Positions 15,701-32,954 of a stretch of 64,000 nt of DNA are shown piece by piece. The stretch is from Promethearchaeati archaeon (lineage in GTDB: Archaea > Asgardarchaeota > Heimdallarchaeia > Heimdallarchaeales > Heimdallarchaeaceae): contig JABLTJ010000007.1 of NCBI GenBank assembly GCA_013166775.1, positions 1-64,000 of the forward strand, written 5' to 3'. Position 1 is the stretch's first letter. The number at the start of each line of letters is the position of its first letter. The translations under genes and the position numbers were made by a program. The notes beneath the pieces were generated by a model. It saw only the letters and a program-made list of their open reading frames with translations. It ran no database searches and was not told the origin of the DNA.

Positions 15701-17167
15701 ATGAAGGATTTAAAGGAGAGAGATAGTAGAATTAGTCTTGTAGTGTTAGTTCTATCAGTAGGATCAGGAATTTTCATAACAACTTTAGATACTTCAGTTA
15801 TTGTATTATTATTAGACACAATTAAAGATGATTTTGGTATTCAACAGAATGAAGTTCAGTGGGTAATCTTAGTCTATCTAATGGTTATGATAGCTTTCAC
15901 AGTAATAGCAGGGAATCTAGGAGATAAATTTGGACACAAATTGCTTTTTCAAATAGGATTAGGAATTCTAATTCTAGGGTGTATTTTGTGTTTTTTCTCT
16001 AATTCATTCGTTTTCTTAATAATGTCAAGAGTAATTGTATCGATAGGTGTTTCCTCTATAATCTCAAATGGAATGGCTATATTAACGTATTTTACTACGA
16101 CTGATAATCGAGGATCAATTATAGGATATACAAATCTATTGATTGGTCTCTCAGTACTTATTGGAGTTGTATTAGCGTCAGTTTTAAAGGATAAATTTGG
16201 ATGGAATAGCACATTTCTTATTAGTATACCAATTGGGATTATGAGTTTAATTTCCGTACAACTTTGCATCCCAAAGATAACAATCGAAAGTGAAAAAAAA
16301 GGCGCAGATTGGATGGGAGCATTTGCTTTTGCAATTTTCTTGTCTCTTTTAATTCTAAGTTTTAGCTTTTTTGTTGAATTGCAGATAAATAGATATCTTC
16401 TCTGGGCAGGGATTTTCCTTTTACTTAGTTTTGTTTTTTTTGGAGTTTTTATTCTTATTGAAAATAAGACTGGAAATCCATTTATAGATCTTAAATTAAT
16501 AAAAAACAAAAAGATTGCAGTTGGGATAATAACAACAATTGTAGCTGAATGGGGAATGATTGTTATTGTCTATCAATATCCCTTTTATTTACAAGATATA
16601 CAAGGAATGGACAACATTATGCTTGTGGGGTTAACAATTGCAGGACTACCTGTATCAATGCCTATTTTAGCTGTAATCGCTGGGAAAATATCAGATAAAA
16701 TTGACGCTAGAATAATCTCTACAATTGGTTTGGTAGGTATGTCTCTAACTTTTCTTATTTTAATATTTATAATTAGAGTAGATACACCAATATGGTTATT
16801 GGTTCTTGTTTCTGTTTTGATGGGGTCGACTTATGGTATATTTATGACTCCGAATAATAATTCTGTGATGACTGCTGCTCCGAAGGACAAATTAGGCGTA
16901 GTAGGAGCTTTAACAAGATTAGCAATGAGTGTAGGAATTAGTTTAGGTACAGCATTATCAGCATGCTTATTTGTTTTGTCAGGAAATATTCTAGAAAAAA
17001 GAACAGGATTAGGAATAGAACATCCTCCACACTATATTATTTCTCTGCGAGTTGAATTTATCATATTCTCTATAATAATTTTGCTAGCGGCTTTCTACTC
17101 ATACAGTAGAGGACCTGAAGAAAGAGGAAGAAAATTCCTGAAGGAAGATAATAGATCTTTCACATAG
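15701..17167 (+). CDS. MFS efflux transporter, DHA2 family
   Basis: LDTSVI; GNLGDKFGHK; PFIDLKLIKN; PNNNSVM; ~14 TM. Confidence 0.88.
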   Translation: MKDLKERDSRISLVVLVLSVGSGIFITTLDTSVIVLLLDTIKDDFGIQQNEVQWVILVYLMVMIAFTVIAGNLGDKFGHKLLFQIGLGILILGCILCFFSNSFVFLIMSRVIVSIGVSSIISNGMAILTYFTTTDNRGSIIGYTNLLIGLSVLIGVVLASVLKDKFGWNSTFLISIPIGIMSLISVQLCIPKITIESEKKGADWMGAFAFAIFLSLLILSFSFFVELQINRYLLWAGIFLLLSFVFFGVFILIENKTGNPFIDLKLIKNKKIAVGIITTIVAEWGMIVIVYQYPFYLQDIQGMDNIMLVGLTIAGLPVSMPILAVIAGKISDKIDARIISTIGLVGMSLTFLILIFIIRVDTPIWLLVLVSVLMGSTYGIFMTPNNNSVMTAAPKDKLGVVGALTRLAMSVGISLGTALSACLFVLSGNILEKRTGLGIEHPPHYIISLRVEFIIFSIIILLAAFYSYSRGPEERGRKFLKEDNRSFT

Positions 17168-17768
17168 CCAGAAAGTATTCATGTATTCTATAATCTTCAG
17201 TAAGTTCAGGATGGAAAACCATTGCTAAAATTTGTTGATTTTTAACCATTACAATTCTTTCGTTATGTTTTGCTAAAATCTCAACATCGGGTGAATTTAC
17301 AGAAAGAATCTGTGGTGCCCTGATAAATACACCATGAAATTCAACTGGATTTATATCTTTAATTTTCAGTTTTGCTTCAAAAGAATCTACTTGTCTTCCA
17401 TAAGCATTTCTAGCAGTAGATATATCAATTAAACCTAATCCCTCAAAAGGATCATTTTCAGAATTGCCTTCTATTTTTGTACTTATAAGAATAACTCCAG
17501 CACAGGTACCTAAGATTTTCATGCCTTCTTCATATTTCTTGAGAATCATTTTTCTTAGATTATCTTCAGACTGGTGAACCATACTAAGCTTATTCATCAC
17601 AGTAGATTCTCCACCAGGAATGATAAGATGAGTAATAGGAAGAATATCTTCTACAGTTTTTACAAGAGTAACAGGATAATTAGGGTTGTTCATAGCTCTT
17701 TTAACAGCTACGACATGCTCACGAAAATCTCCTTGAAGAGCTAAAACCCCAACTATCGGTTTATCCAT
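17160..17768 (-). CDS. pdxT: PLP synthase glutaminase subunit
   Basis: GVLALQGDFREH; IPGGEST; GTCAG; RNAYGRQVDSFE; FHPELT. Confidence 0.95.
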   Translation of the reverse strand: MDKPIVGVLALQGDFREHVVAVKRAMNNPNYPVTLVKTVEDILPITHLIIPGGESTVMNKLSMVHQSEDNLRKMILKKYEEGMKILGTCAGVILISTKIEGNSENDPFEGLGLIDISTARNAYGRQVDSFEAKLKIKDINPVEFHGVFIRAPQILSVNSPDVEILAKHNERIVMVKNQQILAMVFHPELTEDYRIHEYFLAM

Positions 17769-18718
17769 TAGATATCTGCACCTCGTTCTTGCATGCTTAA
17801 TTCCATCTTATCAGTTTCAATACCAAACATAGTTTTCTGTTCATCTACCATTGCTTGAGCCTCTAAAACTTTGTCTGGATCGTTAAAGTGAGTAGTAGCT
17901 AAAACTACTGCTCTAGCTCTGTTTTCTGGATCATCAGCTTTGAAAATTCCACTACCTACAAATATCCCATCACAACCCATGTACATCATTTGAGCTGCAT
18001 CAGCTGGAGTGGCTATTCCACCAGCTGAGAAATTAACAACAGGAAGTCTGCCTAGCTTACATGTTTCTATTAATGTGTCTAAAGAAACTTTTATTGAACG
18101 AGCAAAATACATGAGTTGTTGTCCATCTTTGTTTTCATAGAGCTTCTTAGCATGTTCAATTGAATTCAGATATTTTCGCATGTGTTTGATTGCATGAGCA
18201 ACATTACCTGTTCCAGGTTCACCCTTTGTTCTAATCATTGCAGCTCCTTCTTCGATTCTTCGAAGAGCTTCTCCTAAGTCTCTAGCACCACAGACAAAAG
18301 GTATCTGAAAAGGCCATTTCCAGATGTGTCTCTCTTCATCAGCAGGAGTGAGTACTTCACTCTCGTCAAGCATGTCTACACCAGTAGCCTGCAAGACCTT
18401 AGCTTCGTAGGTGTGGCCAATTCTACATTTAGCCATAATCGGAATACTAACAGCAGACATAATTTCTTTGATCTTCTCAATACTAGCGGTGCGAGCAATA
18501 CCACCAACTTTACGAACATCATAAGGAAGTTTGTCTAAAACCATAACAGAAACAGCACCAGCTTTTTCAGCTATTCGAGCTTGTTCAGCGTTAGTTACAT
18601 CCATTATAACACCGCCTTTAAGCATATCAGCTATACCATACTTGACTTTGATTGTTCCAGTAATTTCTCCATCAACCTCTATTTCTCCAAATTTCTTATA
18701 ATCCCAATAATCTTTCAT
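17768..18718 (-). CDS. pdxS: PLP synthase lyase subunit
   Basis: [10 protein letters not shown]; MAKCRIGH; DESEVLT; RTKGEPGTG; [11 protein letters not shown]. Confidence 0.96.
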
Positions 18719-18884
18719 TTGAGTAACCTCACGAAGAATCCGTTTATACTAAAGATTCTACTTGTATACAAGATTTGACTTGTTGTTTTAAATTTATTGG
18801 TGTGACTTCTGTTATCTAAAGTGTTCAAACTCCATTCCATAGGCTTTAAAACCTTAAAAAAACGCGCTTTGAAACATTACATTT

Positions 18885-19302: not shown

Positions 19303-19884
19303 GTGATTGATATGAAGTCACCCTCAGTCAGAAGGTTCTTTTTTGTTTTATCAATTATCATGCTAATCTTAGTCCCTTATCCTGCACAAGCAGCTAAAAA
19401 AAGTAGATCTGTTAAAGACGAAAATGGGATGAAAATTACTATTACTTGCGGAACTAATGCTAGTTTCATTTCAGAGGATTTTAGAATTAATCTTACACTC
19501 GAACTTACGAAAAAACCTGATAATGTGGTAAAACTCTTCAAAATTGAGATGAGAATCAGACTTCTAGACATCAATTCTACAGAACGTGTAAAACAGACGA
19601 TAAATTTTCCTGATTTATATCCTAATGTAACTCAAAGAAAATCTCCTTTAATTCAGTATGACAGTGAATGGGGGGAAGTTAGGCTCGAACTTAAACTTTC
19701 TTTCTTTGTTGACAAAACAGAACCTTTACCTAGTATTGCAACGGTCACTAATTGGATAAGTTTTTTAACTCTTCGGACTGGTTCATTTACTTCCAACTAT
19801 TATTGGATTTATATTATTCTTGGATTGATAACACTCATTGGCATAGCAGTTGTAGTAAAATGGGGTTTTCTAAATAGAAAATAA
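19303..19884 (+). CDS. Secreted beta-rich protein with C-terminal TM anchor
   Basis: Signal peptide ending AQA; C-terminal YWIYIILGLITLIGIAVVVKW. Confidence 0.7.
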   Translation: MIDMKSPSVRRFFFVLSIIMLILVPYPAQAAKKSRSVKDENGMKITITCGTNASFISEDFRINLTLELTKKPDNVVKLFKIEMRIRLLDINSTERVKQTINFPDLYPNVTQRKSPLIQYDSEWGEVRLELKLSFFVDKTEPLPSIATVTNWISFLTLRTGSFTSNYYWIYIILGLITLIGIAVVVKWGFLNRK

Positions 19885-19963
19885 TCTTGAGTAAATTGTA
19901 TCACTTTTTATAGTAATCAAATTGTACTTTTATAGATGATAAAATATTAGAGTATAGAGAATA

Positions 19964-20677
19964 ATGAATTGGAAGAAGATTAGTAGTTGCATAAACAAAA
20001 AACCAACAACAAATATGAGAGTGAATCGAAAAATAAAAATGAAAATAATGCTCTCTTTATTGTTCTTTTTGATTATGTCACCTTTGCAACTATGTGCAGA
20101 AGATGAATATCTTGTAATTAGTGTTATTGATGCTAGCTTTCCACCGAGATTTAGGATTTACGAGGAATTGAACTTCACTCGATTCAGTTTCGATATAGAT
20201 TATCAAGTTAATAATCCTACTCATTCAGATGTTGTAATTACATTTATTTGTACTCCTTTTCCATTTCCACGTTTAAAAGTAAATTTAGAAAACAAGACTC
20301 TTCTTGTTCTACAAGCTTTTATTATAGAGCCGTTTCCTGGGGAGTATATACTATCTCCTGGAATTTGGTACGAGAGCTACTTATTCAGCTTTGAGATAGA
20401 TAATTACTTAAATGAAAGTCCTCCACTTGGTGAATATGAAATGTGGTTTGATTACACGAATTGCAGTACCTGTCCTGTTCCTGTAGTGACAGAAAAGCTG
20501 ATTATTGATGTTACAGAAACAAACATCATCTATTTTTTTGAGAACAATAATGAAACCAGAGTAGTTTCTCCTACACAAACTATCGAAGTAGCAGATTTCG
20601 AACTACCATTTTATGTCTTTTCCCTTCTGTTATTAGTTCGAGTGTATGTTAAAAGGAAACGAAGAACAAGAGTTTGA
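19964..20677 (+). CDS. Secreted Ig-like protein with C-terminal TM and polybasic tail
   Basis: Signal-like KIMLSLLFFLIMSPLQLCA; C-terminus FELPFYVFSLLLLVRVYVKRKRRTRV. Confidence 0.7.
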   Translation: MNWKKISSCINKKPTTNMRVNRKIKMKIMLSLLFFLIMSPLQLCAEDEYLVISVIDASFPPRFRIYEELNFTRFSFDIDYQVNNPTHSDVVITFICTPFPFPRLKVNLENKTLLVLQAFIIEPFPGEYILSPGIWYESYLFSFEIDNYLNESPPLGEYEMWFDYTNCSTCPVPVVTEKLIIDVTETNIIYFFENNNETRVVSPTQTIEVADFELPFYVFSLLLLVRVYVKRKRRTRV

Positions 20678-20832
20678 CCTAAACTTTTTGCTTTTTCCCT
20701 CTAAAAACCAGCGTATAATATGAGTGAATTATTCTATTGCCTTATTTGCTTCTTTCACTTTACTTCAAGCAATCAGAGCTGAGTTTCCGAAAAAAAAAGA
20801 AAAAAAAATAAGGTGATTAGAGGACTATATTA

Positions 20833-21594
20833 TCAGAAGTTGTAGTCATTTGTTAATTTGGGATTATGGAATGGAGAGAATTGGAATAAGTGGTATGCTT
20901 CATAAACATCGTATGAAGTATATTGGGCATAATAATCCAGAAAAACTGTTCTATCAATTATTGAATTCAATTGAACTCTAAGATCAGTATCAAAGAAAAC
21001 ACGACCTTTCAAACAATTATAATTCAATACATCTGTTCTCATAGAAGGAACACCCCATTCATCAGAGGTTTCTGTTTCAAATTGAACAAATACTGATTCG
21101 TATTGTTTTATCCAAAGACGTTTTTCAACTATATTAAATGCATCAACCATCTTGTTTACGAAATCTTCATCATTTATCAGATCAGGATTAATCCATGTAG
21201 CTTCAATCCATCCATCCACAAGTATTTCAGTTTTAGTAAAAATCTTCTTGTCTGTATGTAGAAGTACAATACTGAGTATCCATGAAATGTATGCAATTTC
21301 AAGTATATCCATATCTTTAGGTAGAGTCATAAAAGGACCATAAATTAAGTCATAATCTTGTGTTTCATGTGCATACAAAGCCCAATCATCAAGAGTATCA
21401 ACATATATGGTATTTACTTCTAAACCTAGACTTTCGGTTTTTTCAATCATTTCATCAACGAGGACTTGCCTTTCTGGTTCCATTAACCAAATTACAAAAT
21501 CAACTACAGGAGTTGTAGTTTGTGCTGCGGGTAGCCAAGCGAAACCTACTAAGCCGATCAAAATCAAACTAAATATTAGTTTTTTGTGTTTCAT
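20833..21594 (-). CDS. Secreted protein resembling one permuted lobe of a family-5 solute-binding protein
   Basis: Signal peptide; ESLGLEVNTIYV...DW....DYDLIYG early; LNYN...FFDTDLRVQLNSIIDR late. Confidence 0.55.
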   Translation of the reverse strand: MKHKKLIFSLILIGLVGFAWLPAAQTTTPVVDFVIWLMEPERQVLVDEMIEKTESLGLEVNTIYVDTLDDWALYAHETQDYDLIYGPFMTLPKDMDILEIAYISWILSIVLLHTDKKIFTKTEILVDGWIEATWINPDLINDEDFVNKMVDAFNIVEKRLWIKQYESVFVQFETETSDEWGVPSMRTDVLNYNCLKGRVFFDTDLRVQLNSIIDRTVFLDYYAQYTSYDVYEAYHLFQFSPFHNPKLTNDYNF

Positions 21595-21725
21595 TTATTT
21601 CACCTCTGGAACCTTAAAGATTCCATTGAGTAAAAGAGAAATCGATTGCATAAAGCATATACGTGAAATTTAATAGTAAAACTATTTTGCAACTAATTTA
21701 AGTCATAGTTTCATTAGATTTCCAC

Positions 21726-23372
21726 TCATTCTCTTTTAATTTCATGTGAAATTATTTGAGTTAAATTGAAGAATAGAAGCATTACATAATAATATTCAAT
21801 ACTAAGATGGTTTTTTGCACAATAACCTGTTGATCTAGTTAGATAACTTTCATACTCTAATCTGATAGAAAACAATATATCTAGTGGATATTCAATAAGA
21901 CAATATGGATCCTCAGAATTAGCGGGACCATCGATAGAATAATTTCCAGAACCGATCCAATCAGACCAGAAGTTGCCTTCTTTTGTCATATTATCGTACC
22001 AGAGATTGCCTAAGCTTTCATCATATCCTTGACTTGTTCCACCCAAATTATTATCGATAAAGCTATTGTGATGAATTAAATTGTTGCTTGAATTTCCAAA
22101 TATAGATAAACCATAGAATTCAGCATTCTGAATTAGATTATTTGTAATATGATTTGAAACTGAATCAGTTAGGTGAATGCCTTCTTTATTTGTATCTATA
22201 GTGTTGTATTGCAGAGAACAATTCGAACTATCATAAATTTCGATCGTATAATTTTCGCTTTGCAACCAAAGATTGGATGAGATGTTAACTCTTTGAGAGC
22301 TTTCTACCCAACAACTACCATAATTATTGAAACCTTGATTGAAAAGAATAGAAACATCAGAAGAATATAAACAATAAATTGCATGACCAAGGATATATCC
22401 CGAATCGCTGTATCCAGCATGGTTGTATATTATATTGTTAGTGATAATACAATTATCAGAACTTTCAAGAAAAATACCATTACCAATATTTGAACCAATA
22501 GTATTTCCTGTCAGATTACAGAAAGGTGAATTATATAGATCAATTCCATGGCTTTCTAATACAAACCAATTTCTGTTTCTTAAACAAGTGTTATTTGTAA
22601 TTGTGGAATAAGGACTTGAGGTAAGAAGAATTCCTCTACGTTCATTTTCAATACATGTGTTGTTAACTAATGTAGAATAGGAGGACACACTGATTTGAAT
22701 TCCAAACCATTTGTTTGAACTACAAGTATTATTAACAAGTTTATTATTATCAGATTGAAATAGATAAATACCTGCACCACGAATAATACCTGTATTGTCA
22801 GTACATGTGTTATTGTATAGATAACACGAATTGGTTTCTTCAAGTTTAATTCCATAGAATTCGTAATTAGTACAAAGATTATTAGTTATATTGCAATAAG
22901 ATGAATCTGAGATAACTATACCACTACCAGTAGGACCTTTGTTATTGATACAAGTGTTATTTGAAATAACTACATAATCAGAGTTAGAGACATAAATACC
23001 AATTTCACTCTTAGAGAAGACATTATCATTAATGATAGCTCTTCCATCTGCTATATCATCAAAATAAATACCATATTCTTTTGCATTTAAGTAACAGTTT
23101 TGAATTATAAAATACTTGAGAGTATTTCTAATAAAAATGCTGTACTTACTATCTGTTGTGATGTTATAATTCTGAATAATATATGGATTATTCACACTCC
23201 CATCTCCTAAAAAGTCAAAGTCTCTGAAATCTTCATCTCTCCAAATTATGATTGGTTCGTGCGCTATTAACCGATCTTTTGTTTTTAGAATAACGTAAAG
23301 TGTGACAAAAGTAGATAAAACTATCACTAAACCTAAAGTGATACTAAGTATTATTTTGTTGTTTTTCTTCAC
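21726..23372 (-). CDS. Membrane-anchored right-handed beta-helix protein (NosD/CASH/PbH1)
   Basis: N-terminal TM; HEPIII..D.DF; G.GS..NPYIIQNY; repeated NNTC..N...GI.L; GNFWSDW. Confidence 0.85.
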   Translation of the reverse strand: MKKNNKIILSITLGLVIVLSTFVTLYVILKTKDRLIAHEPIIIWRDEDFRDFDFLGDGSVNNPYIIQNYNITTDSKYSIFIRNTLKYFIIQNCYLNAKEYGIYFDDIADGRAIINDNVFSKSEIGIYVSNSDYVVISNNTCINNKGPTGSGIVISDSSYCNITNNLCTNYEFYGIKLEETNSCYLYNNTCTDNTGIIRGAGIYLFQSDNNKLVNNTCSSNKWFGIQISVSSYSTLVNNTCIENERRGILLTSSPYSTITNNTCLRNRNWFVLESHGIDLYNSPFCNLTGNTIGSNIGNGIFLESSDNCIITNNIIYNHAGYSDSGYILGHAIYCLYSSDVSILFNQGFNNYGSCWVESSQRVNISSNLWLQSENYTIEIYDSSNCSLQYNTIDTNKEGIHLTDSVSNHITNNLIQNAEFYGLSIFGNSSNNLIHHNSFIDNNLGGTSQGYDESLGNLWYDNMTKEGNFWSDWIGSGNYSIDGPANSEDPYCLIEYPLDILFSIRLEYESYLTRSTGYCAKNHLSIEYYYVMLLFFNLTQIISHEIKRE

Positions 23373-23385
23373 TTTGTCATCATCT

Positions 23386-24483
23386 CTATATTGTTTTTTC
23401 CTCTTTTGAGATATTGGATTGATTTAATACCTCGGAATTTTGCAACTCTTCTGCAACTATTTTTTTTACCACTTTCTCTCCTTTCTTAGTCAAACTGACT
23501 TTGAACTCCCTGCCCCATTTTTCTTTTATAATCAAGCCATTTTCTTCTAACGGAGTCAGATTTCTTGAAGTTTTAGATTTTGAAAAATTTGTTATATTAA
23601 TTATTTCTTGTTGAGTAATTTTACCTTCTTTTTCATTGATTAGTTTCAACAATATTTGTTGATTTTTAGTAAGGTATATTTGTTCAATTTCTTCTTCTAA
23701 TTTGCTTGATCCTCTCTTCATCCACACATATACTAAAGAAGCTCCTAAAATTAGGCCAATAAATGGACCAACAACATAACCCCAGATTCTTGGGGATTCT
23801 GGTTCATCAAAAAGCATCCAAAACGGAACTAAGGTTGACTGTTCTAAACTCGCTATCTCCCATATTACTGCTAATTGGTTATTTGGCCATATTTTTGTAA
23901 AATCAATAGGAATACATGGAGGATTATTTCCTACTTCATGTAGAGAGCATCCTTCTGGTAGTCTAACTGAAAGTGTATAATTATTAGTAAAATATGTGAA
24001 GAATTTATTAAATTGAAATAGATAGTATGATGTTTCTTCTAAAACAAGTATTGGTAATGTCAATAATGTATATCTCAATTCAATTCTGATTTCACTACCC
24101 AATTTAAATTCAGATTCTAAACTAATATTGAGTAATTTTGTATTAGTGATATTTACAAATGAAAGTGGAATATTATTATCATCAATAATGCTTAGGTTGT
24201 GATGTGTTTGGTTTAATGAAATGCAAAGAAACATAGTGTCTTTCTGATTATTCTCTATGTCAATCTCTTCTTCAACATAAATATCATCAACATCAAACAT
24301 AAAGATGTATGTGGAATGTTTTACAACGGTAAAATTCCCCGAAGAAGACATAGAATTTTTTTCATGACATGAAGAGGTTTTGGAAATAGTCGTTTCTATC
24401 ATTCCACTACTGACTAGAATAGATAATAATAGAATAACTGATGTACAAATCAGTAATCTAAACAGTATGGAATTTCGTTTCAA
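23386..24483 (-). CDS. Single-pass membrane protein: extracellular domain, TM, cytoplasmic winged HTH (COG2512-like)
   Basis: Signal; TM IWGYVVGPFIGLILGASLVYVWM; LTKNQQILLKLI..EGKITQQEI....FSKSKTSRNL..LEENGLIIKEKWGR. Confidence 0.8.
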   Translation of the reverse strand: MKRNSILFRLLICTSVILLLSILVSSGMIETTISKTSSCHEKNSMSSSGNFTVVKHSTYIFMFDVDDIYVEEEIDIENNQKDTMFLCISLNQTHHNLSIIDDNNIPLSFVNITNTKLLNISLESEFKLGSEIRIELRYTLLTLPILVLEETSYYLFQFNKFFTYFTNNYTLSVRLPEGCSLHEVGNNPPCIPIDFTKIWPNNQLAVIWEIASLEQSTLVPFWMLFDEPESPRIWGYVVGPFIGLILGASLVYVWMKRGSSKLEEEIEQIYLTKNQQILLKLINEKEGKITQQEIINITNFSKSKTSRNLTPLEENGLIIKEKWGREFKVSLTKKGEKVVKKIVAEELQNSEVLNQSNISKEEKTI

Positions 24484-24648
24484 TAGTACGATATTGTTAC
24501 GATATCTTAAAAGAATTTCCTAGAATATTTTTGAATGTGTTTATTGACATTTCTAAGAGTTAGATAGAGATTCATGATTGATTTTAAAGTTCTTTAGTTC
24601 AGTATTTAGTTAATTTTCATAGAAGCACACAAAGTTTATATTTTTAAA

Positions 24649-26946
24649 TTGATTAATATATCTATGTTGTCTATTGGAATTCCAAGAAAGAGAAAAAAGC
24701 TGATTATATCACTCTTCTTTTCAATAATTATCTGTTCATCTATGATAAGTACTCAAAATATTGTGAAATCTGATGTACCCATGTGGTTAAACTTGACCTT
24801 AAAAACTAGTGTAGGAGGATGGGGAGTAAATCCTGATATTGCTCTGTATATTGCTGATTATTTAGAAGATATAGGAATTAAAGTTAATGTAATTATTGAA
24901 CCATGGGATGTTTTTCTATATGATACTCTTTTATCTACTCATGATTTTGATTTAGCACTTGTGGCTTCAACTGGAGTAGGAGAAACCCCAGATTGGCAGC
25001 ATTACTATAAGGAAGGAGGTTTTTTTACTTCTATCTTTGGTTTAACAAATGATATGCCTTACCAAAATATTAGTGAGGGGATGTTAGAAGAAGGACTTGA
25101 GATAACAAATTTTGAAGAAAGACAGCAGCACTATTATGATTGGCAACAACTAATGATGGATAAAATAATACCTCTGTATCCATTGTTTTCCTCTCCAGAT
25201 TTTGAAGCTACATGGGCAAACATCTTGGGGTATGAGGGTAAATGGGGAATTGTTGACTGTTTACCTTACATGAGCTATAGTGGATATCATGAAGGTCAAG
25301 AATCTCTTGATGAGTTTAATATAGAAACTAACTGGGTAGAATTGAATCCTTTATATAGACCTACCTGGGGCCTTCAGTTCGATCGTGAAAATACTAGAGT
25401 TTTAGACCTAATACACGAACCTATGATTCAATGGAGTCCAGAACAATTACCTATTAAAACTGGTCTTATTTATGATTGGACGAAGATAGATGATTGTCAC
25501 TACAAATTCTTCTTAAGAGATAACGTTTACTGGAATCCATCTTATAATGTCACAGATCGAGATGCTGGTTCAGATCCTTTGGATATAATTCCAGCTGGAG
25601 AATTGATGCTAGGATTGAAGAATTCTGAATATAGCGATGGGACTAATCAACAAGTTACAGCTAAAGATGTGGTTTTTACTCTATTAACTTTTGCAAATCC
25701 TAATGTTAGTTATGTTCCAGGATATATGGAAGTGTTTTCCGATATCTATGTTGACCCTTCTGATCCACTTGCTTTTCATCTTCATATTGACGGTAATCCA
25801 GAAACTCCTAAATTGGAACCATATGCTGATTTTTGGATGAGACTAATGGAAAGGATTATGCCAGAATTCTTCCTAAACTCGACAAATCCCGCGGTAACAT
25901 ATTCTCTTGGAGGTATCAAAACTGTTGGATTGTACGATGGCATTTGGAGTACTCCTCAATGGTTTGATTATAGTTATTCAGCTTTTGGCTGTGGAAAGTA
26001 CATGTTAGATTATGGTGGTCCCGATTCTTTATCTGTTTTTCAACGTAGTCCATTCTGGTTTGGTGTAGGTGCTATCGATGGTGCAACAGGTTTGACACCT
26101 TTTGTTCAAACAATAAATACTAACGTTTTTTCTAATGATGCTCAGTTAGCTGAATTTAAATCAGGAAAATTAGATTGGATGATTTTAAATCAATTTCCTG
26201 TAGATAGAAGGTTAATGGAAGATGACCCACGTTTTGATATTATTAAAGCTCTCGCACCAAACTTCAGTTATATGGTTTTCAATCTTCGAAGACCGTATAT
26301 AAGTGGTGACTGGAATTATTTTTTTAATCCAGATAAAACCAAAAAAGGCTATACTTTGGCTTGTTCTCTTCGAAAAGCGATTTGTTATGCTATCAACAAA
26401 GCAGAAATTAATGAGGAAGTCTTTGAAGAAGAAAAAATAATCGCAAATAGTGTTTTCTATCCTTACACTGAATATTACTATTACGATGACATAATCAAAT
26501 ATGATAGAGATTTAGAAGCATCTTATGATTGGTTGTATGTAAAGGATTATCTTCCAGACATCACAGTTACTGTAAAGAATCATGATAAAGTAGGTGAAGA
26601 TATGATTGTTAAAGCGCGTTATGATAATTCTTTTGATATTACTTCTTCCATTCTAAAGTATAGAGTTAACAATGGTACATGGATAAATGAAACAATGATT
26701 GTATCTTCGAAGAATTCTTATGAATTTAATATAGGAAAAGAGTATGAGAAGAACGATTTTATAGAATTATATGTTCAATTTCAATCTTCTGATGGAAGTT
26801 CATTCAATAGTCAAATATATTCATTTAACGTTGGAACACTTAATCCAATTCTCAAAGCTTCATTTCCAAAAGCAGTTGTTTCAGTTATTTCTTTGTTAAT
26901 GTTCGTGTTGGTAATTAGACGAATAAAGAAAAAAAGAAGAAACTGA
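24649..26946 (+). CDS. Circularly permuted family-5 (Opp/Dpp-type) substrate-binding protein with Ig-like domain and C-terminal anchor
   Basis: IADYLEDIGIKVNV..PW...DFDL and EERQQHYYDWQQLM..IPLYPL precede LNPL/VTAKDVVFT/GCGKY/LRKAICYAINK; C-terminal TM plus RRIKKKRRN. Confidence 0.8.
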   Translation: MINISMLSIGIPRKRKKLIISLFFSIIICSSMISTQNIVKSDVPMWLNLTLKTSVGGWGVNPDIALYIADYLEDIGIKVNVIIEPWDVFLYDTLLSTHDFDLALVASTGVGETPDWQHYYKEGGFFTSIFGLTNDMPYQNISEGMLEEGLEITNFEERQQHYYDWQQLMMDKIIPLYPLFSSPDFEATWANILGYEGKWGIVDCLPYMSYSGYHEGQESLDEFNIETNWVELNPLYRPTWGLQFDRENTRVLDLIHEPMIQWSPEQLPIKTGLIYDWTKIDDCHYKFFLRDNVYWNPSYNVTDRDAGSDPLDIIPAGELMLGLKNSEYSDGTNQQVTAKDVVFTLLTFANPNVSYVPGYMEVFSDIYVDPSDPLAFHLHIDGNPETPKLEPYADFWMRLMERIMPEFFLNSTNPAVTYSLGGIKTVGLYDGIWSTPQWFDYSYSAFGCGKYMLDYGGPDSLSVFQRSPFWFGVGAIDGATGLTPFVQTINTNVFSNDAQLAEFKSGKLDWMILNQFPVDRRLMEDDPRFDIIKALAPNFSYMVFNLRRPYISGDWNYFFNPDKTKKGYTLACSLRKAICYAINKAEINEEVFEEEKIIANSVFYPYTEYYYYDDIIKYDRDLEASYDWLYVKDYLPDITVTVKNHDKVGEDMIVKARYDNSFDITSSILKYRVNNGTWINETMIVSSKNSYEFNIGKEYEKNDFIELYVQFQSSDGSSFNSQIYSFNVGTLNPILKASFPKAVVSVISLLMFVLVIRRIKKKRRN

Positions 26947-26980
26947 GCTAAAACTTATTATCTTTATAGAACCATTTTGA

Positions 26981-28222
26981 TTGTTTATGAAGATTAATAA
27001 GAAAATAATATTCCTTATACTTTCTTTTGTTGCATATCTTCTTCTTAGTACATTAATAGAACCTAATCTAAGATTTTCTTATGATTATCTTATTCCATGG
27101 TATGCTGCTCTATATATCGTTAAGGGAGTTCCTCTTTATGAACAACCTATGTTTAAAGAGATAAACGGAGAGATAATACGATACCCATATCATTTACCAA
27201 TCTATATCTATTTTTTAGCAGTATTGATTTTCATTCTTGGAGAAAGTTTTATAGCAGGAAAGATTAGTCTCGTTATATTCATTTTCTGTGATGCGTTACT
27301 TCTAGAACACATATTAAAGAATGCTCAGAAGAATAATGAGGAGAAGAATAAGATCTTGGGATATTCATCTCTCATCTTCCTGTTGAATCCTGTAATAATC
27401 ATTACGACAATCAGTGGTTTATTCGATGGACTACCTCTATTATACCTGTTAACAGGGATTTTTTTCTTACAGAAGATTAACGAAGATAAGAACAAAAGAA
27501 ATTTGATTTTTAGTATTCTTTCAGGAATATCAATTGGTATTGGATTCTTAACAAAAGTTATTCCTTTAATTTTCTTACCAGTTGGTTTTTTATGGTTATT
27601 ATCAAAGAAGAAATACCTTGAAACAATTAGTTTTTCTTTAAGCTGTTTGGGAACATCAGGAGGTTTCCTTGCATATCTATGGCTCACATATGAAGATTTC
27701 AAAAGCTTGGGTTTGGGTTGGCAAGTGACGAGGGAAGATAAATCCTTCAGTTTTTACTATTATGTTTTCAATCTAGAATTTAGACCTGGATTAATTCTAT
27801 TGGGAGTAGGTTTAGGAGTTATCTCAATATTAATTATCTATTTCTTGGTCAAAAACGAAAAGCTAGATTTCATTATTATATCAGGTATTTTTTTAACTTC
27901 CTTTTTTATCTTCTATAGAGTCTTTTATCCACATTATCTTATCTGGATTGTCCCCTTCATCAGCTATCTTGGAATTATTTTCATTAATACTAAAAAAATG
28001 AAAATGTTCTACGTTTTAGTTGGTGTATTTCTGATAGAATTATTTTCAATTGGAGTCTACTATGTAGATTTTTTTAAATGGATAATTCTTGGAAAATCAC
28101 TTCTAATTACTGTATCTAGTATTAATCTAATATGTTTGGTTTTCTTTCTAGTATTGTTCTTCATCAATAGAAAAAGGGGATTTTCAACTCCAGCACAGTC
28201 AATCATAGTATCTACAGATTAG
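26981..28222 (+). CDS. GT-C glycosyltransferase (GT87/PIG-M-like)
   Basis: YPYHLPIY; LLNPVIIITTISGLFDGL; TKVIPLIFLP; PHYLIW; many TM. Confidence 0.7.
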   Translation: MFMKINKKIIFLILSFVAYLLLSTLIEPNLRFSYDYLIPWYAALYIVKGVPLYEQPMFKEINGEIIRYPYHLPIYIYFLAVLIFILGESFIAGKISLVIFIFCDALLLEHILKNAQKNNEEKNKILGYSSLIFLLNPVIIITTISGLFDGLPLLYLLTGIFFLQKINEDKNKRNLIFSILSGISIGIGFLTKVIPLIFLPVGFLWLLSKKKYLETISFSLSCLGTSGGFLAYLWLTYEDFKSLGLGWQVTREDKSFSFYYYVFNLEFRPGLILLGVGLGVISILIIYFLVKNEKLDFIIISGIFLTSFFIFYRVFYPHYLIWIVPFISYLGIIFINTKKMKMFYVLVGVFLIELFSIGVYYVDFFKWIILGKSLLITVSSINLICLVFFLVLFFINRKRGFSTPAQSIIVSTD

Positions 28223-28289: not shown

Positions 28290-28694
28290 ATGAAGAACAA
28301 GAAAATACTGATTGGAATTAGTCTTATAGGTTTATTCTTGATAGCTATGCAGTTCTCTATAGCTCAACAACAAGAAGAAGCATACCAAGTATTTGCTGGA
28401 GAAGGATTCTTTGATAAAGGAATCTGTGAACAGGACCGCGATCAAGACCGTGATAGAACTTGTGACTGCGATTGTGACTGTGATTGTGGCTGCGAATGTG
28501 ATTGCAACCCAGATTGTGATCCAAACCAATTCCGTGATCAATTCCGCGATCAATTCCGTGATCAATTCCGTGATGGATCTTGTGATATAGAATTCTACGA
28601 TGCCTGTGATATCGATTGTGATTGCGACAAATACCGTGATCAAGATCGTGATCAAGATCGTGATCAACTCCGTAATAAAACTTGTACGATTTAA
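28290..28694 (+). CDS. Small secreted Cys/Asp/Arg-rich repeat protein
   Basis: SD GGAG; signal peptide; CDCDCDCDCGCECDC; (QFRD)4; RDQD repeats; T-rich terminator downstream. Confidence 0.7.
   Translation: MKNKKILIGISLIGLFLIAMQFSIAQQQEEAYQVFAGEGFFDKGICEQDRDQDRDRTCDCDCDCDCGCECDCNPDCDPNQFRDQFRDQFRDQFRDGSCDIEFYDACDIDCDCDKYRDQDRDQDRDQLRNKTCTI
28527..28574 (+). repeat. Coding tandem repeat, 4 x 12 nt CAATTCCG(T/C)GAT (QFRD)
   Basis: Direct reading; a related CGTGATCAAGAT array lies at 28635-28667. Confidence 0.9.
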
Positions 28695-28796: not shown

Positions 28797-30149
28797 TTAG
28801 ATATAATCGATTAAATCTCTCATTCGTTCTATTGTCTCAAAACCTTTTTTTGTTAATTCGAATTCTTTTCTCTTAGCTTTATTTTCAATTTCTGTTATAA
28901 TACCCTTTTCTTCTAATTCATTCAGATGCTGATAAATAGATTGCAGTGATTGAGATTTTCCAAGAGAAACCCAAATAGAATAACCATAAGTTGCCTTTTT
29001 ACCTGCAATAAGATTTAGAATCTCAAATTTAGTTGTAGAGCTTTCTGATAATCCCCAAACAACCTTCTTCTTCCCTCTTAGCTGTGCAGCGTAAATGTTC
29101 AAAGCATTGAATCCAGAGCCTGTCAGAATTGCTGCTGTTTTTGTACAATCAATCTCTTTCTCGTTAGTTAGTATTCGAGCGGCTGCTAATACTGATGCAG
29201 AAGAGGGTTCAATGAATAATCCTTCTTGTCTTGCAAGCGTTAGAGCTTCATCAATCATGACTCCTGCATTGATCTCTAACTCTTCTCCCTCTGTTTCTTT
29301 AACAAGTTTCTGAACCTCTTCAATCATATAGGGTTTCTTGATTTCTAGTGATTCAGCAAGATGAGCAATTTTCGTTTTCTCTAAAGAAATAGAATAAACT
29401 TTGGGGATTTTCTTTATCCATCCTGATTCTTTAGCATCTTCAAATCCTCTGTAAACCGAGAAAATAAGTGATCCTGATCCTCTTGGAACTATGATTGAAT
29501 CAATCATTTCTGATTGCAGAGCAATTTCTAACCCTATAGTTTTCTGACCTTCAATAGTCAGGATGTTTTGTTCAGGAGTAGCAAAGTAACCTTTCTCTTT
29601 AGCAGAAATAGTTTCTGATTCTTTAATAGCTTCATCAACAGTCTCCCCTTTCTCAATAACTAATCCACCATAGATTTTCATTTGTTCTATTTTTGATAAT
29701 TCCAAGTTATGGGGGACTACATTAGTTGAACTCAAACCAGCTTTTGCCGCATAAGCAGAGAGACTGATACTGAAAGACCCAGTACTCGCTCCAACGATTG
29801 TTTTAGCTTTCTTTTGAATTGCATCAGATACAATCAGTGAACATGCTCTATCTCTAAAAGTACCTGTTGGATTTCTGAATTCGAGTTTAACGTTTAATCC
29901 GCGTAAATCCTTATCTCTAGAAATCTGCAGGAAAGGTGTGTTTCCTTCTGCGAGTGTTACAATCTTCTCAAAATTAGGTAAGAAATCCATTATAGACCAC
30001 ATTGACGATAATGATATTTTTTCCTTCGTGGGTCCTTTTATAGCAGGGATTAATAATAGAGAATTACACTCAGGGCAGCGAAGGTAGGGCTCTTCAAAAT
30101 CTAGACTACAATTACTGCAATGAGGTTTCTCTTTCCACATTATAATCAC
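28797..30149 (-). CDS. Threonine synthase-like (PALP fold) protein lacking the PLP lysine, with N-terminal zinc ribbon and C-terminal wHTH (probable start ATG 30140)
   Basis: CSNC..CPEC; LAEGNTP; NPTGTFRDR (canonical NPTGSFKDR); EGQKTIGLEI; EPSSAS; C-terminal TYGYSIW...SIYQHLNELEEKGII...KEFELTKKG. Confidence 0.85.
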   Translation of the reverse strand: MIIMWKEKPHCSNCSLDFEEPYLRCPECNSLLLIPAIKGPTKEKISLSSMWSIMDFLPNFEKIVTLAEGNTPFLQISRDKDLRGLNVKLEFRNPTGTFRDRACSLIVSDAIQKKAKTIVGASTGSFSISLSAYAAKAGLSSTNVVPHNLELSKIEQMKIYGGLVIEKGETVDEAIKESETISAKEKGYFATPEQNILTIEGQKTIGLEIALQSEMIDSIIVPRGSGSLIFSVYRGFEDAKESGWIKKIPKVYSISLEKTKIAHLAESLEIKKPYMIEEVQKLVKETEGEELEINAGVMIDEALTLARQEGLFIEPSSASVLAAARILTNEKEIDCTKTAAILTGSGFNALNIYAAQLRGKKKVVWGLSESSTTKFEILNLIAGKKATYGYSIWVSLGKSQSLQSIYQHLNELEEKGIITEIENKAKRKEFELTKKGFETIERMRDLIDYI

Positions 30150-30193: not shown

Positions 30194-30394
30194 CTATAGT
30201 TCAGGAATACCCGCAGATTCTTCTTTTTTATCAACTTCTATATCACACGAGGTAAGCTCGGAGAATAATTCTTCTAGCTGAAATGATAAGGGTTCTTCAA
30301 AATCAAGGAAAAAATTAAAATTCTGCTTAATTATATGATCAAAAAGCTGTAAAAGAAGTTTCTTTTCCTTTTCAGAGTGCATTACTATTCGCAT
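30194..30394 (-). CDS. Small hypothetical protein
   Basis: 66-aa ORF filling the gap upstream of the PALP-wHTH gene on the same strand. Confidence 0.45.
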   Translation of the reverse strand: MRIVMHSEKEKKLLLQLFDHIIKQNFNFFLDFEEPLSFQLEELFSELTSCDIEVDKKEESAGIPEL

Positions 30395-30547
30395 AGTACA
30401 AAAGAGACCCTCATAATTGAAAAATATTTCCTATCTCGATATTTCAATAGAAACAAGCCTTAAAAGTAGAATTTAAGAACTTGTTTCAAAAATAGATTTA
30501 TAAATAAGCTATATTGATGCAGTACTAATTTAAAGTTGTGATTATAT

Positions 30548-32251
30548 ATGCCGGAAAAGATTTGGTCTTATTGTGAGGGAATTCCTGATCCAGTTGAAAT
30601 TCCTGAAATAAGTGTTATTGATTTATTCAGACAAACAGCTGATAAATTCCCTGACCGTAATATGACAGAATTTAAGGGTAAGTACAAAAGTTATCCTGAA
30701 ATTGATGAAGAAATAAACAGATTTGCAGATTCCCTAAAAAAACTGGGAGTTGGAAAAGGAGATAGAGTAGCTTGTTTGATGCCAAACTGCCCTCAATATA
30801 TTATTTCCTTTTTTGCAACAAATTCTCTAGGAGCAATATTTACAGCAATTAGCTCTCTTTATACATCTAAAGAAATCAGATACCAACTTCAGGACAGTGA
30901 AGCAAAGGTAATAGTGACCATTGATATCTTCTTAGATAAAATAAGAGATGTAATAGATGACACAAAACTTGAACATGTTATTGTATCTTCTGTTGCAGAT
31001 GAGCTCCCTAAAATTACTGCATTTCTTTACAAAAACGTAATTGGAAGAAAAAATCCAAAAATTAAGGATGAACACAAATACAAAGATTTGATAAAGAAAG
31101 GGGAAAATAAGAGAATTGTCCCAAAAATAGACCCTAAAGAAGATGTAGCAGTATTCCAATATACTGGAGGAACTACAGGTGTAATGAAAGGTGCAATGCT
31201 AACAAACTATAATTTGTTAGCTCAAGCTTCGACATTACCCTACTGGGATATATGGTTACCCGAAAGACCAAAAGGTCAATATAAGATTTCAGGTTGCCTT
31301 CCAATGTCTCACATTTTTGGTTTCTCTACCTCATTCTTATGGACAGTAGCTACAGGTGGTTTATTGTATTTAATCCCTGATCCCAGACAGCTTGAAGAAG
31401 TCATGGCAAGTGTCTCAAAACATGGAATTCATTTCATGTTTGCTGTTCCTGTTTTATATCAGAAAATTTCTGAACATCCAAACATTGACAAATTTGACCT
31501 CTCATCACTTTATTTATGTATTTCAGGTGGTGAAGCACTACCGCTTACAACTGCTGATAATTTTGAAGCAGTATCGAAATGTATACTAGTTGAAGGGTAT
31601 GGATTATCAGAATCTTCCCCCGTAACTCACGTCAATCCAGCTACTTCTGAGTTAAAGAAAGTGGGCACTATTGGAATACCTATACCTAACACCCTAGCAA
31701 TGATAGTCGATATGGATACTCAAGAAGAAATCACTGAATATGGTAAAGAAGGTGAGCTCTGGATAAGAAGTCCTAGCGTTATGAAAGGATATTGGAATAA
31801 TAAAGAAGCAACAGATAATTCTTTAGTTAAAGGATGGTTAAGAACTGGAGATATAGCTACTATGGATGACAAAGGATATTTTTCAATTGTTGATCGAGCT
31901 AAAGATATGATAATTATCAGTGGTTTCAAAGTTTGGCCTAGTGAAGTTGAAGATGTTCTTTATGCCCATCCCGATATAAATGGTGCTGGTGTTATTCAGT
32001 TAAAAACAGAAACAGGTGAGCAAGTCAAAGCTGTTCTTGTAGCTGAACCAGGAAGCAAAGAACTTACACTTAAAGAAATCAGAGATTACTGTAAGAAAAG
32101 CATGGCACCTTATAAAGTTCCTTCATCAATTGAGTATAGAGATGAATTACCTAGATCTACTGTTGGTAAAGTTCTGCGAAAAGATCTCAGAGCTGAAGAT
32201 GTTATTACTCCTCCTCCTGAAGTAAAAGAGGAAGTAAAAGCTAAACAGTAA
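30548..32251 (+). CDS. Long-chain fatty acid-CoA ligase (FadD-like)
   Basis: YTGGTTGVMKG; EGYGLSE; GWLRTGD; DRAKDMII; GKVLRK. Confidence 0.92.
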   Translation: MPEKIWSYCEGIPDPVEIPEISVIDLFRQTADKFPDRNMTEFKGKYKSYPEIDEEINRFADSLKKLGVGKGDRVACLMPNCPQYIISFFATNSLGAIFTAISSLYTSKEIRYQLQDSEAKVIVTIDIFLDKIRDVIDDTKLEHVIVSSVADELPKITAFLYKNVIGRKNPKIKDEHKYKDLIKKGENKRIVPKIDPKEDVAVFQYTGGTTGVMKGAMLTNYNLLAQASTLPYWDIWLPERPKGQYKISGCLPMSHIFGFSTSFLWTVATGGLLYLIPDPRQLEEVMASVSKHGIHFMFAVPVLYQKISEHPNIDKFDLSSLYLCISGGEALPLTTADNFEAVSKCILVEGYGLSESSPVTHVNPATSELKKVGTIGIPIPNTLAMIVDMDTQEEITEYGKEGELWIRSPSVMKGYWNNKEATDNSLVKGWLRTGDIATMDDKGYFSIVDRAKDMIIISGFKVWPSEVEDVLYAHPDINGAGVIQLKTETGEQVKAVLVAEPGSKELTLKEIRDYCKKSMAPYKVPSSIEYRDELPRSTVGKVLRKDLRAEDVITPPPEVKEEVKAKQ

Positions 32252-32255
32252 ATTA

Positions 32256-32954
32256 CTAAAAATAGCTCTCTATTCTTTTTTTATCTTCTTTTTCTAACTG
32301 CTCTAAATTCTCTAATTGTTTTATTTCTAGTCTTGACCAGAAAATACATTTTTCATGGTGCCAACGATAATTTAAATATTGATCGAAATAATAAGGTTCA
32401 CCAATTCTTACTGTCCCCTTTTCAATCTTTAAACCACATGATTTACAAGTCGCTCTACTACTTTTTGCATATTCAATTTTCCATTTATCCTCACGGTCAT
32501 ACAGAGTTAATTTTTGAGTTTCATTCCCAATAATATCTTGTATTCTTTCGAAAGGATTCAAACCATCTAGCATTGTGGAGGAAATTTTTAGATGAAAAAT
32601 ATCATAATTTGATAACATAAAAGCTAATTGAGCAGGTTTATCTTCCTGTAATTCTTTTTCCACTTTCACTTTAGGTGGAAGAGTATCTCTTGCTAGAATG
32701 AATTTTGAACAAGCTTCTGACATTAGTTTACTGATTTCCTTTTTGTTCTTTGTAATGAATTTATTTTTATCAACAATTCCATAAGAGGTTTGAATAACTG
32801 TACGATCAATGTCTTCAATATATTCTTTTTCTTTTACAATCACTAGAGAACTGTCAGGGATATCATTATCTATAGTGAATATGTCAAATGTCTTAGGATC
32901 AACAAAAAATCCCCATTCATTCTCTGAATCCAAAATTAGTTTCATTTTGTTCAA
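32256..32954 (-). CDS. Protein with C-terminal PARP-type zinc finger
   Basis: WKIEYAKSSRATCKSCGLKIEKGTVRIG...RWHHEKC...LENLEQLEKEDKKRI. Confidence 0.85.
   Translation of the reverse strand: MNKMKLILDSENEWGFFVDPKTFDIFTIDNDIPDSSLVIVKEKEYIEDIDRTVIQTSYGIVDKNKFITKNKKEISKLMSEACSKFILARDTLPPKVKVEKELQEDKPAQLAFMLSNYDIFHLKISSTMLDGLNPFERIQDIIGNETQKLTLYDREDKWKIEYAKSSRATCKSCGLKIEKGTVRIGEPYYFDQYLNYRWHHEKCIFWSRLEIKQLENLEQLEKEDKKRIESYF

Follow-up and report, generated by a model that had tools for sequence, protein, structure and literature searches.

What does a protein do that has the fold of threonine synthase (ThrC), lacks the lysine that this enzyme requires, and ends in a DNA-binding domain? The question is raised by a gene on the reverse strand of a 64,000-nucleotide stretch of DNA (positions 1 to 64,000 of contig JABLTJ010000007.1, assembly GCA_013166775.1; hereafter the window) from a Promethearchaeati archaeon of the family Heimdallarchaeaceae. 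An earlier note, made from the sequence alone, had read the protein as a pseudoenzyme fused to a winged helix-turn-helix (wHTH) and acting as a one-component regulator. We propose that this protein, here called the regulator, is a repressor responsive to pyridoxal 5'-phosphate (PLP) or another form of vitamin B6, and that it would control the PLP-synthase genes pdxST in the window genome and a PdxU-like importer in most relatives. Judged from sequence comparison, we put the probability of this reading at roughly 0.7.

A threonine-synthase fold with arginine at the Schiff-base position

The protein consists of an N-terminal zinc ribbon, a threonine-synthase fold and a C-terminal PadR-like wHTH (coordinates in Table 1). 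This is the architecture that the earlier note had described, and it is borne out by the two CxxC pairs, by Pfam matches to PALP and PadR and by an AlphaFold2 model. The true start is likely the ATG at position 30140, which gives 447 amino acids and thereby matches the length of database protein P0002, to which the regulator is 100% identical. All four cysteines of the zinc ribbon are invariant in the family alignment, and the model has a confidence (pLDDT) of 83–94 there. Built with 49 homologues, the model has a pLDDT of 88.5, the disordered parts being a loop (residues 263–268) and a linker (residues 360–367). Its top Foldseek matches were the ThrC structures 6nmx, 2zsj and 1v7c (E 1e-23 to 1e-21, TMt about 0.8), and it is predicted to adopt the two-domain fold of fold-type II PLP enzymes. 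The C-terminal module is predicted to contain helices at residues 369–382, 389–395 and 402–414, strands at 418–421 and 429–432, and a last helix at 434–449, corresponding to the three helices, beta-hairpin wing and C-terminal helix of a wHTH. Consistent with this, the last 89 residues match RosR, a wHTH protein (6qfd; E 0.006). The Pfam PadR match (PF03551; residues 377–441, positions 28827–29021) is marginal, at 28.2 bits against a gathering score of 27, and is backed by precomputed PF03551 matches on many homologues.

Fold-type II PLP enzymes require a lysine that forms a Schiff base with the cofactor. In the regulator, the corresponding segment reads NPTGTFRDR (residues 93–101). Translation and HMMER alignment to the solved ThrC structures 6cgq and 2zsj confirmed that Arg99, as noticed before, stands exactly under the lysine of NPTGSFKDR; the two other motifs singled out at that time, ASTGS and PRGSGSL, are found at residues 121–125 and 222–228.

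To trace this position through the family, 268 relatives retrieved by a word-based and an exhaustive HMMER search were aligned. Among the relatives that bear a wHTH, the lysine column holds Arg in 132, Ile in 26, Leu in 16, Val in 9, Thr in 5 and Met in 3, with a few other residues and a true Lys in only 4. Among those without a wHTH, Lys is present in 53, and the 6 with Arg are all truncated fragments. Arg is invariant in the full-length wHTH-bearing proteins of the regulator's own clade (131/131). A tree of full proteins placed 132 wHTH proteins in one clade with a support of 98, which splits into the Arg clade containing the regulator and a sister clade with Ile, Leu or Val at the lysine column. 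In a tree of the enzyme core computed without that column, no protein lacking the wHTH fell within the wHTH group, the branch support being only 35. In the same tree the four Lys-bearing wHTH proteins (P0112, P0115, P0133 (Bathyarchaeota) and P0130) are nested inside Arg sequences with a support of 92–98, and we therefore regard them as secondary reversions. A single base change, from AGA to AAA, separates the two states, and by analogy with MocR these four proteins may bind PLP covalently. Arg99 is a family trait, not a local mutation or sequence error, and the possibility that close homologues would all carry Lys, which the earlier note had named as fatal to its reading, did not materialize.

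The remainder of the pocket is preserved. Residues N93, P94, T95, F98, D100, R101, G124, K203, T204, G224, G226, E314, P315, T343, G344 and G346 are conserved in the regulators as they are in the enzymes. Retention of these motifs together with loss of the lysine indicates that selection kept a PLP-shaped pocket and removed the residue that binds PLP covalently.

The regulator misses every curated NCBIfam cut-off for threonine synthase (NF004170, 281.4 bits vs 421; TIGR00260, 93.3 vs 167.1; NF006050, 122 vs 303), and a real ThrC is encoded elsewhere in the same genome (NF006050, 575 bits vs the cut-off of 303). In ThrC, the arginine of the NPxR segment preceding EGQKT binds the phosphate of the substrate. 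This arginine is not kept in the regulator, which reads NILTIEGQKT vs NPYRLEGQKT in Bacillus subtilis ThrC; in the Arg clade, position 198 is Thr in 58%, Ala in 12% and Val in 10%. Database entries of the family from Heimdall, Loki, Thor, Odin and Baldr archaea and from Bathyarchaeia are labelled 'threonine synthase' or 'PLP-dependent enzyme'; orthologues of the regulator exist also in Promethearchaeum and Lokiarchaeum (P0048 and P0044), which have been cultured. By these comparisons the protein is most likely a one-component transcription factor derived from a catalytically dead copy of ThrC, and not a threonine synthase. The pseudoenzyme reading thus gains support from a lysine loss that is family-wide and coupled to the wHTH fusion, and from the presence of a real ThrC elsewhere.

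The genome also encodes a second, Lys-bearing ThrC-like paralogue (L005; G000 C107:121219-122427) with the motif NPSSSYKDR and a TIGR00260 score of 181.7 bits vs 167.1. It is flanked by a 359-aa open reading frame (ORF) upstream and by a 454-aa ORF with a Cys-rich motif downstream, and may be something other than a plain threonine synthase.

Vitamin B6 genes near the regulator and a palindrome in their promoters

The gene neighbourhoods of 20 orthologues were compared over 8 kb on each side, and adjacent genes were clustered. The most widespread neighbour, found in 11/21 loci from close and distant lineages, is the S component of an energy-coupling factor (ECF) transporter belonging to PF07155; in relatives of the same genus it is accompanied by a fused EcfAA' ATPase and a probable T subunit. 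PdxU and PdxU2/HmpT, both members of PF07155, are together with P5PA the sole characterised prokaryotic B6 transporters (PMC9997740). Among the 34 orthologue-bearing genomes, at least 19 have a PF07155 gene no more than about 2 kb away from the regulator. pdxS is absent from 18 of the 19 genomes with this neighbour and present in 7 of the 15 others (Fisher p = 0.011; genome counts ignore kinship, and such p-values overstate the support). The linkage recurs in several families.

A wider count gave a similar picture. Among 151 Asgard genomes, pdxS was detected in 25 (9 of the 72 high-quality ones) and PF07155 in 134, and 126 were without pdxS. pdxS is present in 11/17 PF07155-negative vs 14/134 PF07155-positive genomes (odds ratio 15.7). 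These numbers suggest that B6 auxotrophy combined with uptake is the rule among Asgard archaea.

Within the genus of the window, six genomes without pdxS have a PF07155 gene adjoining the regulator (the sole PF07155 match in five of them, while G045 has two). Both genomes with pdxS, namely the window genome and its sister G097, are devoid of PF07155 genes. The pdxS-pdxT pair of G097 occupies the exact slot of the ECF operon of G145, G133 and G115, divergent from a gene for a Cys-Asp mini-protein. The pdxST pair and the PF07155 importer replace each other in the same genomic slot. The start of the probable pdxT overlaps the stop of pdxS, and therefore the two genes likely form one operon; the same order of pdxS and a 202-aa gene is seen in G097. 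In G007, another Asgard genome, a Leu-type member of the family lies directly upstream of pdxS.

These promoters share a palindrome. The sequence TATACAAG-N6-CTTGTATA, with A/T variation in its arms, occurs upstream of six ECF S-component genes of the genus and likewise of pdxS in G097 and in the window, about 8–10 bp after an AAAAAG-TTATAA-like box and 10–70 nt before the start codon. The two candidate sites in the window have centres 18 bp apart and lie just downstream of an A/T-rich TATA-like box. Paired sites are 18–20 bp apart in most promoters, a spacing that fits two dimers side by side, and their overlap with the expected transcription start suggests repression. The palindrome was also found before regulator-adjacent importer genes in families f6, f7, f9 and f26, and before pdxS in f22. 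Where the importer is far from the regulator, at 22 kb to 260 kb or on another contig (G003, G026, G074 and G086), the palindrome still precedes the importer, scoring 17–30 there vs at most 4 elsewhere in those loci; three of these genomes carry it as a tandem pair.

When the scoring matrix was derived from importer sites of other genomes only, the pdxS site of the window ranked 8th of about 7.7 million genome positions, and most of the matches above it fall within ORFs. Three top matches (C20:17233, C7:13095 and C2:153542) were rejected as regulon members since they lie inside ORFs. Exact matches to the core at 14974 and 20292 were treated as chance because, with their flanks included, they score below the matrix threshold. 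The palindrome was absent (best score −2.4) from the pdxS promoters of five order-level relatives (G015, G036, G054, G111 and G148), in which an NCBIfam model spanning both domains detected no ThrC-wHTH gene. G007, which has the Leu-type member upstream of pdxS, and G002, which was not checked for one, were left out as negative controls. The earlier note had called any link to pdxST speculative. That link is strengthened by the palindrome common to the window pdxS promoter and the relatives' importer promoters and by the exchange of the two systems in one slot; binding of the palindrome by the regulator stays at the level of a proposal.

Related observations were made outside the Asgard archaea. 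A scan of species-representative genomes gave 80 loci, 73 with an ordinary ThrC and 7 with a wHTH-bearing protein, the latter from Bathyarchaeia, Nitrosopumilales, Nitrososphaerales, other Nitrososphaerota, Ignisphaera and Desulfurococcales. The lysine is absent in all seven (R, I, I, V, L, L and I), and an ECF S-component homologue lies within about 3.3 kb in 4/7 of these loci (three immediately upstream) vs 0/73 of the ordinary ThrC loci. In Nitrososphaerota and Bathyarchaeia, a related palindrome, TATATAAG-N6-CCTATATA, is located about 40–60 nt before Ile/Leu-type regulator genes (L060 3940, L061 3944, L063 3960 and L068 3945) and is possibly the operator of that clade. The Asgard matrix scores these Nitrososphaerota and Bathyarchaeia palindromes no higher than background.

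Two further features of these loci are recorded here. The 6.7-kb contig C242 of G048 (L049) carries pdxS and an adjacent PF07155 gene with an operator pair before the latter; it was not counted, being a possible contaminant (9% contamination, and pdxS in only one of the four genomes of its family). In the window, about 9–9.4 kb of genes for cell-surface (exported or membrane) proteins, at 19303–28222, separate the pdxS promoter from the Cys-Asp mini-protein gene. The latter (28290–28694, plus strand) encodes a secreted Cys-Asp repeat protein and is a conserved neighbour in G097 and G145, where it is divergent from the operator-bearing promoter; in the window no operator is nearby.

Table 1. 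Positions of the regulator gene, its domains, the candidate target genes and sites, and adjacent genes in the window
Feature	Position	Strand	Remarks
ThrC-like wHTH regulator gene	28797..30149	−	ORF of 450 aa from GTG; stop at 28797-28799
N-terminal zinc ribbon	30066..30119	−	CxxC at residues 11-14 and 25-28
Fold-type II PLP-enzyme (threonine-synthase-like) domain	29118..29960	−	Residues 64-344; Pfam PF00291 (PALP) E 3.6e-51, Foldseek, pocket conservation
Arg99 codon AGA	29853..29855	−	Position of the PLP Schiff-base Lys
PadR-like wHTH and terminal helix	28803..29045	−	Residues 369-449
Two overlapping 22-bp palindromic operator-like sites	18747-18768 and 18765-18786		29-68 nt upstream of pdxS start
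pdxS (PLP synthase subunit), candidate target	17768..18718	−	PF01680 E 3.1e-96
Probable pdxT (glutaminase subunit)	17160..17768	−	202-aa ORF; named by size, position and the earlier note
66-aa ORF	30194..30394	−	53 nt upstream of ATG 30140; no Pfam match
AMP-binding (acyl-CoA synthetase-like) gene	30548..32251	+	Divergent from the regulator; conserved neighbour in 8 Heimdall-family loci

Proposed mechanism and competing explanations

We propose that the fold-type II domain (residues 64–344) is the sensor part of the protein. With Arg in place of the Schiff-base lysine, it would hold PLP, a related B6 vitamer or an adduct only non-covalently, and hence reversibly, and would in this way report the free B6 pool. 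The PadR-like wHTH, probably dimeric, would bind TATACAAG-N6-CTTGTATA. The tandem pair at 18747–18786 is preceded by the TATA-like box and followed by the pdxS-pdxT start codon, and under B6 sufficiency the ligand-bound protein would occupy these sites and block pdxST transcription. In relatives without pdxST, the same protein and operator would govern the S component of the PdxU-like ECF importer. Four elements of this scheme, namely palindrome binding by the regulator, a PLP or B6 ligand, repression and action as a dimer, are all inferred from sequence patterns.

Several observations weigh against the proposal. The Asn of ASTGN, which in the enzymes contacts O3' of PLP, is Ser in the regulator, and the phosphate loop is altered too. 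The two sites in the window score 18.1 and 16.2, the lowest of those assigned, most others scoring 20–32. No operator is present in the regulator's own promoter (30395–30547, the intergenic region that it shares with the AMP-binding gene; best score −12.1), and the link between protein and palindrome therefore rests on co-localisation and co-occurrence in relatives. Autoregulation was rejected on the same score, and an 8-bp inverted repeat in this region, GAAACAAG-N22-CTTGTTTC, was rejected as an operator, having the wrong spacing and not being conserved in G097. Regulator and pdxST (17160–18718) are about 10 kb apart in the window, since the gene block at 19303–28222 splits a locus that is compact in G097. 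To these points are added the kinship of the genomes counted, and an acyl-CoA-synthetase gene and a small upstream ORF that the B6 model leaves unexplained.

The change from ASTGN to ASTGS and the altered phosphate loop mean that the ligand could differ from PLP. The alternative that survives best accordingly accepts the control of B6 genes and changes the signal: the ligand would be an amino acid, O-phosphohomoserine or some other phospho-amino acid, or a PLP–amino-acid external aldimine, and the domain would read out amino-acid or nitrogen status and not the B6 pool. The enzyme from which the fold descends has O-phosphohomoserine as its substrate, and a fold-type II protein without the lysine can keep an external aldimine, as in 1d6s, which by its entry title is a K41A O-acetylserine sulfhydrylase with a PLP–Met aldimine. 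Set against this, the proposed regulon comprises B6 synthesis and uptake genes only, the ThrC arginine for the substrate phosphate is replaced in the NILT segment and not kept in the Arg clade, and the conserved motifs are those that contact PLP, not the substrate. We consider this alternative unlikely, though worth keeping in mind. Of the ligands listed in the earlier note (amino acid, phospho-amino acid or B6 vitamer), the B6 vitamer is favoured; the amino acid and phospho-amino acid are less likely because the substrate-phosphate arginine is lost and because the proposed targets are B6 genes.

Still less probable is an explanation in which another transcription factor binds the palindrome and the regulator controls the acyl-CoA-synthetase gene or its own operon, proximity to B6 genes being inherited synteny. 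The operator-free promoter of the regulator would agree with it, as would the AMP-binding gene, a conserved divergent partner in the Heimdall family, and the recurrence of a [NiFe] hydrogenase operon and of GINS-MCM genes among the neighbours. However, PF07155 adjoins the regulator in at least six Asgard families, in Nitrososphaerota and in Bathyarchaeia, in varied orientations, which goes beyond expected synteny. Moreover, the operator tracks the regulator, since genomes without the regulator lack it in their pdxS promoters, and the regulator is the sole transcription-factor gene to recur in the loci compared.

That the protein is still an enzyme, either a threonine synthase or another PLP enzyme of unusual mechanism and possibly bifunctional like the archaeal enzyme-regulator RbkR (PMC5397151), as the database names and the intact fold and most pocket motifs might suggest, is very improbable: the Schiff-base position holds Arg in the regulator and Ile, Leu or Val in its sister clade, all ThrC cut-offs are missed, and the genome has a bona fide ThrC.

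The remaining neighbours are described for completeness. The 66-aa ORF is probably co-transcribed with the regulator: in 11/11 Heimdall-family genomes examined, a 64–66-aa ORF on the same strand lies 11–56 nt upstream of the regulator, with 41–67% identity and no stops. Its homologues form 63 clusters, all from Heimdall archaea and all 'hypothetical'. A complex prediction for the regulator and the 66-aa protein returned a score of 0.00 and no verdict, and no conclusion was drawn from it. The gene at 32259–32954 on the minus strand, conserved in position in genus relatives (cluster 11), encodes a protein of 232 aa that has a PARP-type zinc finger at its C-terminus (PF00645, E 1.2e-15) but lacks a catalytic domain. 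The hydrogenase operon, group-3-like and found near or adjoining the regulator in L027/L028, L033, L040, L023, L024 and L031, encodes an Fe-S protein, an FAD/NAD subunit, small and large subunits and a HycI protease, and was seen in Heimdall genomes and in the distant family f18. Several distant lineages (L033–L042, e.g. L036 10637–16853) have a GINS - MCM - Hel308-like helicase cluster divergent from the regulator. Its MCM gene is unusually long in L035, L036, L033 and L040 (1127–1748 aa), and that of L036, the one scanned, contains an intein.

Returning to the B6 proposal, we hold it probable, if slightly less so than the reading of the window itself, that the family is the missing B6 regulator of Archaea, which lost the lysine in favour of reversible cofactor binding independently of MocR/PdxR, and that its PF07155 targets are the B6 importers of Asgard archaea without pdxST. 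No archaeal B6 regulator was described in the literature searched. If the proposal is correct, most sampled Asgard genomes (the 126/151 without pdxS) would belong to community-dependent B6 auxotrophs, and Asgard B6 auxotrophy and cross-feeding would become directly testable. A large set of ECF S components in Archaea would gain an assigned substrate, a B6 vitamer, in a field where B6 transporters have been called an open problem (PMC9997740). The Lys-less ThrC fold would also represent a clear case of a pseudoenzyme turned receptor, convergent with bacterial PdxR, and hundreds of archaeal 'threonine synthase' entries in databases would need correcting.

Comparison with known systems

We describe the family by a zinc ribbon, the motif NPTGxFxDR with any residue but Lys before DR, a C-terminal wHTH, and a pdxS or PF07155 gene that is nearby or carries the operator; the window protein has all of these. 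No description of a family combining a Lys-less ThrC fold with a wHTH was found in the literature searched. Compared with ThrC (TIGR00260, NF004170/PRK05638), the regulator shares the fold, NPTGxFxDR, the G-rich loop and an N-terminal zinc ribbon like that of archaeal ThrC, and the NF004170 match spans residues 41–442, including the C-terminal wHTH region. It differs in the exchange of the catalytic Lys for Arg, the loss of the substrate-phosphate arginine and the additional wHTH.

With the PadR family (PF03551) it shares a wHTH followed by a C-terminal helix and a palindromic operator, here two 8-bp arms with a 6-bp spacer. Classic PadR proteins, however, are small and stand-alone with an N-terminal wHTH, whereas the PadR-like module of the regulator is a C-terminal appendage on a 360-aa sensor domain.

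Among archaeal vitamin regulators, ThiR, which responds to thiamine, likewise joins a wHTH to a domain derived from the metabolism of its vitamin, and regulates genes for synthesis and transport by way of palindromes close to the promoter. RbkR, the riboflavin regulator (PMC5397151), is an archaeal wHTH fused to a domain from the metabolism of the vitamin that it regulates, and controls synthesis and transporter genes through promoter-near palindromes, as proposed here. The sensor folds are different, RbkR keeps its kinase activity while the regulator is without the catalytic residue, and the vitamin would be B6.

The closest functional counterpart is bacterial PdxR, whose regulon comprises pdxST, pdxK and pdxU, although MocR proteins are reported as not present in Archaea (PMC5320631). 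PdxR/MocR proteins and the regulator are both one-component proteins that combine a PLP-enzyme-like domain with a wHTH, and the proposed regulon, pdxS and promoters of the PdxU family PF07155, consists of the same kinds of genes, a likeness of function and not of membership. In MocR proteins the wHTH is N-terminal and of GntR type, and the aminotransferase-like domain, of fold type I, retains the PLP lysine; the regulator, in contrast, starts with a zinc ribbon, continues with a ThrC-like domain of fold type II that lacks the lysine, and ends in a PadR-like wHTH. The regulator and PdxR are analogous, not homologous.

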